The notes beneath the pieces are model-generated. The model saw only the letters and a list, made by a program, of their open reading frames with translations. It was not told the origin of the DNA and did no database searches. From a virus (taxonomy: Duplodnaviria > Heunggongvirae > Uroviricota > Caudoviricetes), in IMG/VR virus record IMGVR_UViG_2740892015_000008: 32,650 nt of DNA, one strand, 5' to 3'. Position numbers and translations under genes: made by a program. Positions within the stretch are counted from its first letter, which is position 1. Each line of letters starts with the position of its first letter. Positions 25,461-26,068 of this stretch are shown here, piece by piece.

Positions 25461-26068
25461 CTTCATTTTATCTTTCTTTCCAGACCTACAAACAAGGTAC
25501 TAACAAAATTTGGTTGTAACACGGCGTATGGCACATGCGTCGTTAGCGGTCTGGGGACGTTAAAGGGGACAATCCACTCCTTGCTCGGGCAAACAAACCA
25601 GGTAGCCGGAATGTGCAAGTCAATGAGGATGCTGATAAGACGCCTAACCAGCGTGGCGGTTCGGTTTGACGCCTGGGAAGAGACCAGGGTGCAACGATGA
25701 GGGCATTTATGGAGCCGCGACAAAGTGTGGTGCCATAACTGGCTAAGTGCTCTCAGCGTTGTGGTAATCCGCGAAATGGCGCGGCGGTAAGTATGGCTGG
25801 GTTACTCTTTCCCCGTTGAGGACACCGGATTGTCAGGTTGACCATACGCCTGAGTGACAACCCCACCACAACAGCCACTGCTTTGGCGGTACCAGTTTGT
25901 ACACTTGCTTCCGGCTGGTACCGCTCTTTTTACAAAACAGAGAAGAGCATCACCGGACGACGGGCTCATAACCCAATCCACCCGGGCGGCTGCCACCGCA
26001 GGTGTTCTTCTCTGTTTTGTGGAGAAACCAACCGACCTTGCAGGGTCGATATGATGAGGAGCAGCAAA

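Follow-up and report, generated by a model that had tools for sequence, protein, structure and literature searches.

Why does a lambdoid prophage place a long RNA helix directly in front of the first gene of its early-left operon? The question is raised by a 32,650-nucleotide (nt) stretch of DNA from a virus of the Caudoviricetes (IMG/VR record IMGVR_UViG_2740892015_000008), referred to here in its full length as the window. The window is a lambdoid E. coli prophage resembling SfV, mEp460 and cdtI, and is 100% identical to a record from strain CT265. A sequence-only reading of it had drawn attention to a long hairpin at 25932-26020, upstream of the gene yfdP. We find that this element is one member of an unnamed but widespread family of RNA modules with long stems, which stand in the leaders of prophage early-left (dicB-type) operons. 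As to its function, we give somewhat better than an even chance to the explanation that the hairpin is an RNase III processing stem, carried only by those transcripts that read through the terminator immediately before it.

Fold, conservation and strand of the element

The arms of the hairpin, 25932-25949 (ACAAAACAGAGAAGAGCA) and 26003-26020 (TGTTCTTCTCTGTTTTGT), pair over 18 base pairs (bp) with a single wobble, G25947-U26005, exactly as the sequence-only reading had described them. That reading also expected the stem to be extendable by a few more pairs and proposed that the region be folded. Folding of 25925-26030 on the + strand with RNAfold gave an outer helix, P1, of 25 unbroken pairs (25927-25951 with 26001-26025), and a repeat finder recovered an inverted repeat with 25-nt arms at the same site. 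Two of the added pairs lie inward and five lie outward, where the U-run 25927-25931 meets GGAGA at 26021-26025. The fold has a free energy of -49.2 kcal/mol with a z score of -7.1, and none of 200 dinucleotide shuffles was as stable; the hairpin is far beyond chance. The 53 nt enclosed by the 18-bp arms had been taken for a GC-rich loop. The length is right, but the segment is no loop: it is a conserved structured domain that folds into two hairpins, P2 and P3, and makes the element a three-way junction. The outer helix ends 43-48 nt 5' of the yfdP ATG (26069), in keeping with the distance of about 45 nt given earlier. The parts of the element are as follows.

25927-26025, + strand: long-stem module 2, the subject of this study; outer helix of 25 pairs, the first five formed by the terminator U-tract and the purine run GGAGA
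25953-25985, + strand: P2 arm; 7-pair stem CCGGACG/CACCCGG, conserved C-A mismatch, internal loop and apical hairpin
25962-25974, + strand: apical hairpin of P2, GGG-CUCAUAA-CCC
25986-25999, + strand: P3, a variable hairpin, GCGG-CUGCCA-CCGC

How widespread is this structure? Of 5426 complete E. coli genomes, 2808 carry the 107-nt element, in one to five copies each, mostly unannotated or beneath a "hypothetical protein". The K-12 copy lies within the open reading frame (ORF) ymfH of prophage e14, just 5' of xisE-intE. A motif scan of viral contigs yielded 120 loci with 66 distinct variants, a set that was gathered with the tRNA-like motif of the apical hairpin itself. In the alignment of the 66 variants, standard pairs fill 93% of the cells as compared with 42-54% for slid partners. 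The long helix is 95.8% paired and shows double, compensatory changes at six pairs; pair 17:125 is found as CG 35 and AU 25, pair 22:120 as GC 51 and CG 15, and pair 28:114 as AU 45 and GC 18. Pair 39:63 of P2 covaries as well (GC 35, AU 24), and three of the four P3 pairs carry double changes, P3 being swapped in other variants for inserts of up to about 40 nt. Over the alignment, the long helix shows 108 G-U pairs, which are valid on the + strand only, versus 11 A-C pairs, which are valid on the minus strand only. The element is therefore an RNA read from the + strand.

The bias of the motif scan was removed by fetching 80 loci through homologues of the YfdP protein and then searching them with a covariance model. 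The element was found about 40 nt 5' of the yfdP homologue, on the + strand, with 80-127 bits in about 30 of these protein-retrieved loci, as compared with only 35-46 bits on the minus strand. The genera with strong matches include Leclercia, Kosakonia, Klebsiella, Citrobacter, Enterobacter, Erwinia, Mixta and Mangrovibacter; weaker matches stand at the same place in Serratia, Yersinia, Rahnella, Providencia, Proteus and Morganella. When the yfdP loci were folded, about 55 of 79 formed a helix of 19-32 bp that runs from a U-run to a purine run and ends 23-51 nt before the ATG. The parts common to all loci are a GC-rich hairpin with U5-7, the 19-32-bp helix, usually a small GC hairpin, and a Shine-Dalgarno (SD) sequence with ATG. 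The apical domain changes from clade to clade, and Yersinia similis, in which the long stem and its flanks persist, has none. The long helix is the invariant core of the module. The purine partner of the U-run varies between A and G (GGAGAA, GGAGUA, GAAGUG, GGGGAA), a variation under which the U-run can still pair, by A-U or by G-U. The GGAG after the helix was also considered as a CsrA site or a second SD and was dropped, since the purine variation only preserves pairing with the U-run.

The first genes 3' of the module are unrelated to one another (YfdP, two RdgC-like proteins, a YfbR-like protein and an excisionase), which fits a generic processing or insulating role. The lengths of the variants, 110-137 nt, are not multiples of three, so no reading frame is conserved across the element, and an ORF spanning it (25838-26431, ymfH) was ruled out on this ground. 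ORFs that have been drawn over it comprise an upstream in-frame extension of yfdP, seen in database versions of 148-199 aa, and ymfH of e14 (L006 2821-3132). Because of the frame-breaking indels we regard such spanning ORFs as annotation artefacts. A gathering-threshold scan of the window with Rfam 15 returned only C4 and isrK, both elsewhere, and no family on the element; the only Rfam match on the element is a chance-level hairpin-ribozyme hit on the minus strand (E = 1.3). A literature search for yfdP, ymfH and tRNAfMet mimics returned nothing on the element. A module present in about half of the complete E. coli genomes and in many Enterobacterales prophages thus stands outside every Rfam family, often unannotated or covered by ymfH-type "hypothetical protein" ORFs or by N-terminally extended YfdP calls.

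Can the repeat act as DNA, or from the opposite strand? It could be an inverted-repeat binding or recombination site, a repeat similar to miniature inverted-repeat transposable elements, or a small RNA made from the minus strand. The 18-bp inverted repeat is perfect in the DNA, and the minus strand, too, gives a stable fold (-45.5 kcal/mol, z = -5.0), if a less stable one than the + strand. This explanation is nevertheless very improbable. It is at odds with the predominance of G-U over A-C pairs and with the extension by the U-run and the purines, which pairs on the + strand only. Orientation and position are constant relative to the downstream gene, the few copies per genome are not dispersed, and there is no terminator in the minus orientation.

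The early-left leader and RNase III

What surrounds the element? The repressor gene sets the orientation, so the early-left (pL/dicB-type) operon lies to its right on the + strand. We infer pL at the two operators, and 25480-26068 would therefore be an untranslated leader of about 590 nt, to which PGAP assigned nothing. The placement of the hairpin in the early-left leader is borne out by these neighbours: it lies on the + strand, 3' of the repressor gene, of the terminator of that gene and of two OL-type operators. The features are listed in order.

24674-25366, + strand: cI-like (XRE/S24) repressor gene, from the annotation of the identical CT265 record and the ORF list
25388-25409, + strand: intrinsic terminator of the repressor transcript, from a terminator scan, AGCCACCAGAAGGTGGCT followed by TTTTC
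25423-25437 and 25446-25460, + strand: OL-type operators TTGCATATCTCGCAA and TTGCATAATGTGCAA, of the form TTGC-N7-GCAA
25446-25451 and 25469-25474, + strand: candidate pL, -35 TTGCAT and -10 TATCTT at 17-nt spacing, hexamers read by eye
25508-25685, + strand: leader module homologous to phage P1 71010-71194, with overlapping homology to phiV10-like phages
25687-25770, + strand: long-stem module 1, fold of -37 kcal/mol, aligned to the Qin stem
25771-25884, + strand: spacer that matches the body of Qin's 190-nt DicF precursor at about 90% identity
25885-25931, + strand: terminator T, intrinsic and DicF-like; its GC-rich hairpin (25885-25925) has 13 pairs and is followed by C and U5 (25927-25931)
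26033-26048, + strand: small GC hairpin CGACC-UUGCAG-GGUCG, 3' of the long stem and 5' of the ribosome-binding site
26056-26061 and 26069-26431, + strand: SD sequence GAGGAG and yfdP, the first gene of the operon (PF27127)

Four exact matches to TTGC-N7-GCAA occur in the window, three of which flank the repressor gene (24639, 25423 and 25446). The leader thus runs from long stem 1 through the spacer and the DicF-like terminator to long stem 2, the element studied here, and on to the first gene. It is also a mosaic, individual segments of which reappear in different phages.

The hairpin had alternatively been proposed to be part of a cis-acting antitermination RNA, and the leader bears directly on this proposal. 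The phage has no N-like gene and its early-left operon begins with yfdP, the element lies within the pL leader, and processive antitermination by RNA alone is known from phage HK022 (PMC9378689), where each put site is an RNA of about 70 nt with two stem-loops in a V shape and putL stands just after the promoter (PMC9378689). A put RNA is located 5' of the terminators that it suppresses and works through the zinc-binding domain of the beta-prime subunit of RNA polymerase. The element of the window is built otherwise, as a three-way junction closed by a 25-bp helix, and lies about 450 nt from the inferred promoter. The sole strong terminator is 5' rather than 3' of the element and so beyond its action, and 26000-30200 contains no convincing intrinsic terminators on the + strand. 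Moreover, the covariance model finds nothing in the immunity region of HK022, and the apical domain is dispensable in some clades. We consider an antiterminator of the put type hardly credible here, and the earlier suggestion finds no support. A boxA reading of CGCUCUUUUUACAA was likewise given up, as this string is not conserved and is GCCCUUUUU, GCAAUUUUUU or GCACCUUUUUU in other loci.

The affinities of the leader point elsewhere, to the dicBF region of the Qin prophage of K-12. Alignment shows that 25745-25880 is about 90% identical to the segment 5' of DicF in Qin. In Qin, a bona fide DicF (76.7 bits with the Rfam model) is directly followed by CCCUUUUU, then by a 21-bp helix around an STnc100-like domain, and then by the SD and ATG of dicB, the same layout as in the window. 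This helix, in the dicF-dicB spacer (L208 8788-8941), reaches to within 5 nt of the SD of dicB. In e14, the hairpin directly 5' of the element is a sub-threshold match to DicF (28.5 bits) and the region before it a sub-threshold match to STnc100. Terminator T of the window (-21.2 kcal/mol, z = -4.0) was recovered as an inverted repeat by the repeat finder and has the hairpin signature of DicF, UUUGGCGGUAxCAG...CCGCC followed by a U-run. It scores 11.8 bits against DicF (RF00039; E = 1.8) over model positions 12-52 only, and does not reach the gathering threshold of 48 bits. The single-stranded 5' seed of DicF, UUUCUGGUGACG, is absent from the window, where the alignment has a 19-nt gap opposite UUAUCAAUUUUCUGGUGACG of Qin. 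Judged by this alignment, T is not a bona fide DicF. Because the layout is Qin-like, the sequence before DicF is about 90% identical and the DicF terminator is kept, we assign the leader by homology to the dicBF type.

This assignment accounts for a 600-nt region of the prophage that looks empty. It predicts how the first early-left gene comes to be separated from a small-RNA unit 5' of it, and it yields a concrete candidate RNase III site. Which of the two long stems of the window corresponds to the one in Qin? The 3' arm of stem 1 with its flank, GTTGTGGTAATCCGCGAAATGG, is conserved in the Qin long stem, and by alignment stem 1 is the true orthologue of the mapped Qin stem and stem 2 a second, paralogous copy. 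The Qin long stem (L208 8518-8603), with arms CCAUAACGCGAAAGCGCAUGG and CCGUGCGCUUCCGGUUGUGG and the apical loop UUCAUAG, appears to be related to stem 2 as well; the two share the arm motifs CA.AAC....AAG.GCAU and GUGC.CUUC..GUUGUGG as well as a UCAU apical loop.

Is the helix a plausible substrate of RNase III? The enzyme accommodates about 22 bp of double-stranded RNA (PMC6212723), and a helix of about two turns, some 20-22 bp, is the size to be expected; the 25 pairs of the window exceed it. The sequence-only reading had likewise taken the perfect stem for an RNase III-type substrate. The compensatory changes, together with the ratio of G-U to A-C pairs, indicate that the helix is upheld by selection on the transcribed strand. 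Homology to the dicF region of Qin lends indirect support. There, a 190-nt DicF species that is missing in an rnc mutant owes its 5' end to RNase III (bioRxiv 10.1101/2023.04.14.536235), which confirms Faubladier et al. 1990, while RNase E makes the 53-nt DicF, whose 3' end is the terminator (Ragunathan et al. 2023, bioRxiv 10.1101/2023.04.14.536235). Counting 190 nt back from the 3' end of DicF leads to about L208 8591, in the 3' arm of the Qin long stem. In addition, public RNA-seq data point to an RNase III-dependent loss of coverage. For a site named "intergenic dicF-dicB", Table S1 of Gordon et al. 2017 gives 0 and 0 reads in the wild type versus 26 in the rnc mutant, and the dicF-dicB spacer is almost wholly filled by the Qin helix that matches our element in position. 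This site is only suggestive because the count is low and one site was reported per 400 bp. Gordon et al. 2017 count it as the "known" DicF site, which really lies 5' of dicF.

These observations suggest the following course of events. Transcription from pL would pass through a DicF-precursor-like unit consisting of long stem 1, the spacer and the DicF-like terminator. Because terminator T abuts the hairpin, only read-through transcripts would carry it; transcripts ending at T would never contain the hairpin, and those that continue would complete a 25-bp helix starting in the terminator's own U-tract. Host RNase III would then cut the two turns of double-stranded RNA, and the cut would most likely part the DicF-like small-RNA unit from the downstream mRNA. 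By analogy with Qin, it would be expected some 10-14 nt away from the base of the helix, close to 26008-26015. The upstream non-coding unit would be detached in this way, the yfdP mRNA would gain a defined 5' end a few dozen nt before its ribosome-binding site, and the apical domain would also be freed as a small fragment. Cleavage might thereby alter the stability or translation of the yfdP mRNA, in either direction.

A helix that RNase III leaves uncut might instead serve as a stable structural element that insulates the yfdP ribosome-binding site from the mosaic leader 5' of it, protects the leader from Rho or RNase E, or tunes the translation of yfdP. It speaks for such a role that the 620-nt leader as a whole is unusually structured (z = -6.5), that the module is joined to many upstream modules and downstream genes, and that it stands at a fixed distance from the SD and is accompanied by the small hairpin, itself conserved. 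On the other hand, the helix is consistently at least two turns long, more than the stability of the fold needs, and in E. coli RNase III normally cuts perfect double-stranded RNA of such length; the SD lies outside the helix in the window, and the related Qin stem is cleaved. We therefore judge a purely structural role unlikely, albeit one to be taken seriously.

Several points weigh against RNase III processing as the explanation. The covariance model gives only 12.8 bits on the Qin long stem (E = 0.014 in 1.7 kb), a weak homology, and the Qin stem that occupies the position of our element has unrelated arms (9.4 bits, E = 0.11). The signal of Gordon et al. amounts to 26 reads and could reflect the known upstream site. 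Many variants have a mismatch in the middle of the helix, column 24:118 being unpaired in 36 of 66. Finally, processing by RNase III alone does not explain why the sequence at the base of the helix (ACACA/UGUGU) is conserved, or why the tRNA-like apical hairpin is so strictly kept.

A number of observations on the leader and its relatives stand apart from this argument. The small hairpin has in other loci the compensatory variant GGCGG-UGGCAG-CCGCC; its loop motif UGCAG/UGGCAG is kept across genera while the stem covaries, and the same motif recurs in the P3 loops of long variants and of one phage P1 copy. The segment 25508-25685 is 78% identical to phage P1 71010-71194 (L003 3001-3185), directly 3' of tRNA-Ile2(CAU) and 5' of ban, and has homology at two places in phage P1. 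The overlapping 25521-25764 is about 83% identical to phiV10-like phages (L004 2501-2745), directly 5' of a tRNA-Arg gene. The 25508-25685 segment thus appears, from these alignments, to be an unnamed RNA module tied to phage tRNA genes.

Many other loci (L132, L165, L166, L175, L180, L191, L195 and others) have a DicF-like terminator with a long loop and conserved UCUUC...GAAGAUAAUGUUCUG, about 60 nt 5' of the element. In these long-loop terminators an SD (GGAGG or GGGGAG) stands 8-9 nt before AUG UUC UGA. This mini-ORF of two codons stops at the 3' arm of the terminator, an arrangement that suggests ribosome-dependent control of termination. The terminator of the window is of the short type without the mini-ORF. 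A promoter in the long loop (TTCAAC-N-GATAAT), which the window terminator lacks, was dropped because its spacing varies from 13 to 23 nt, whereas the conserved spacing of SD and AUG indicates a mini-ORF instead. In Yersinia massiliensis (L188 2169-2296), the DicF-like terminator is preceded by a tRNA-like sequence of 40.3 bits, above the Rfam tRNA threshold and uncalled by ARAGORN; it has acceptor, D and T arms, with about 60 nt replacing the anticodon arm, and may be a Y-RNA-like or interrupted tRNA.

Other candidates were also rejected. The CA-rich and GU-rich arms recall a GcvB target and its seed; the anti-small-RNAs AgvB and AsxR, checked for this reason, map to the PR' moron site and not to the element, and the arms in the window have no CACAACA motif. 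Hammerhead-like strings (GAAAC ... UGAUGAG) are in the wrong order and without an Rfam hit. Kissing of the CAU loop with the SD or AUG, or of P3 with the small hairpin, is not conserved.

Elsewhere in the window, in the rightward early operon, the C4 antisense RNA (23227-23314, minus strand, 80.7 bits) adjoins isrK (23339-23415, minus strand, 61.2 bits). The pair sits beside a Rha/antirepressor-type gene and looks like a P1/P7-style immI-like RNA switch within a lambdoid prophage.

The initiator-tRNA-like apical hairpin

What, then, could the apical hairpin be, which RNase III processing leaves unexplained? The sequence 25961-25974, CGGGCUCAUAACCC, matches the anticodon stem-loop of tRNAfMet, the initiator tRNA of E. 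coli, at 14 of 14 nt (nucleotides 28-41) and folds into three G-C pairs and the 7-nt loop CUCAUAA. The tRNAfMet gene sequence was checked in genomes and found at 100% identity, in four copies per genome. The resemblance extends to the ban operon of phage P1, where the covariance model finds two related modules on the + strand with 41 and 36 bits, and where a third look-alike is seen.

L003 (NC_005856) 1493-1590, 1705-1823 and 1996-2074, + strand: three long-stem modules of phage P1, in the ban operon, among tRNA-Asn, tRNA-Thr and tRNA-Ile2

The two related modules have the apical loops UUCAUAU and GUCAUAU (NUCAUAU) and lie among real tRNA genes, including tRNA-Ile2(CAU). The third look-alike, directly 3' of tRNA-Thr, carries a hairpin resembling a T arm, AGGG-UUCGAAU-CCCU. 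The phage P1 modules underlie the annotated minus-strand ORFs plp and upl, which calls the reality of plp and upl into question.

The module might accordingly imitate the anticodon arm of initiator tRNA, with the long stem as a scaffold or as a handle for excision by RNase III. The molecule bound could be a VapC-type anticodon nuclease, for which the hairpin would be a decoy, or MetRS or TilS, or the P site of the 30S subunit, in which case it would be an operator as in thrS. The thrS operator indeed imitates a tRNA anticodon arm, and enteric VapC toxins reportedly cut tRNAfMet in the anticodon loop (Winther and Gerdes, in 2011); both count in favour of imitation. So do the 14-nt identity and the preservation of the motif in about 29 of the 30 strong matches, which come from loci retrieved by protein and not by motif. 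The phage P1 modules add loops of the form N-U-C-A-U-A/U-N among tRNA genes and the T-arm-like hairpin of the third look-alike. A tRNAfMet mimic or decoy of this kind is not described in the searched literature.

Other evidence opposes this idea. The tRNA-like motif is confined to the Enterobacteriaceae/Erwiniaceae and phage P1 versions of the module; in Yersinia, Serratia, Proteus and Providencia unrelated hairpins take the place of the apical domain, which is missing altogether from Yersinia similis. The e14 copy has lost CAU (loop UUAAUAA), only three of the five pairs of the anticodon stem are copied, and the viral-contig set was ascertained by the same motif. A tRNA gene in the element was found neither by ARAGORN (0 calls) nor by the Rfam tRNA model (none at E up to 10 in 25350-26120). 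A search for a pseudoknot partner of the apical loop was dropped, the variation in the loop being too small. We think imitation of the anticodon arm by the module unlikely. That the apical hairpin is a genuine mimic, excised by RNase III as a small stable RNA and acting in trans or in cis on whatever factor recognises tRNAfMet or the CAU loop of an anticodon, is improbable. Were it so, the hairpin would perhaps be a decoy that shields initiator tRNA from VapC-type anticodon nucleases during prophage induction, or else an operator that binds to the P site or MetRS. A functional tip would tie prophage leaders to tRNA-targeting toxins or to translation initiation, and the ban-operon modules, of which two have CAU loops and the third a hairpin resembling a T arm, would be phage tRNA-fragment mimics on RNase III stems.

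Comparison with known systems

How does the element relate to the tRNA mimics, leaders and processing stems that are known? Like the anticodon-arm mimics of the thrS type, it imitates an anticodon arm, in this case the CAU anticodon together with the three G-C pairs characteristic of initiator tRNAs. Compared with tRNAfMet itself, the element is no tRNA, and only the tip of the arm is copied. With put of HK022 it shares being a structured RNA in the early-left leader of an N-less lambdoid phage; it differs in its size of about 100 nt, in its architecture and in its position relative to promoter and terminators.

The sequence-only reading had likened the hairpin to the lambda N leader and to sib. 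The comparison is sound as an analogy, in that all would place a long double-stranded RNA in the pL transcript, where RNase III processes it and expression is affected. In sib/tI retroregulation, only transcripts that read through the terminator complete the RNase III helix, as we propose for the window. They are not relatives, however: no homology of sequence or structure is found, and the window has neither an N gene nor a nut site of the lambda type (no N-like gene is annotated, yfdP of PF27127 being the first gene, and no 15-nt boxB-type hairpin is present). Furthermore, the helix of the element starts in the U-tract of the terminator and is not an extension of the terminator hairpin, and the element lies 5' of the gene that would be regulated, whereas sib lies 3' of it.

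Among the small-RNA families, the comparison falls on DicF (RF00039) and STnc100 (RF02076). The hairpin directly 5' of the element is a terminator of the DicF type, the modules next to the element in e14, ST64B, Buttiauxella, phage P1 and Qin are sub-threshold matches to STnc100, and the STnc100 model itself describes a long stem with an apical domain and a DicF-like terminator; the element matches neither family. Finally, the RNase III stem of Qin dicBF was mapped 5' of DicF, whereas our element lies 3' of the DicF-like terminator. The two are alike in that each belongs to the early-left operon 3' of the repressor gene, in Qin that of a defective lambdoid prophage, and each has a helix of about 20 bp.

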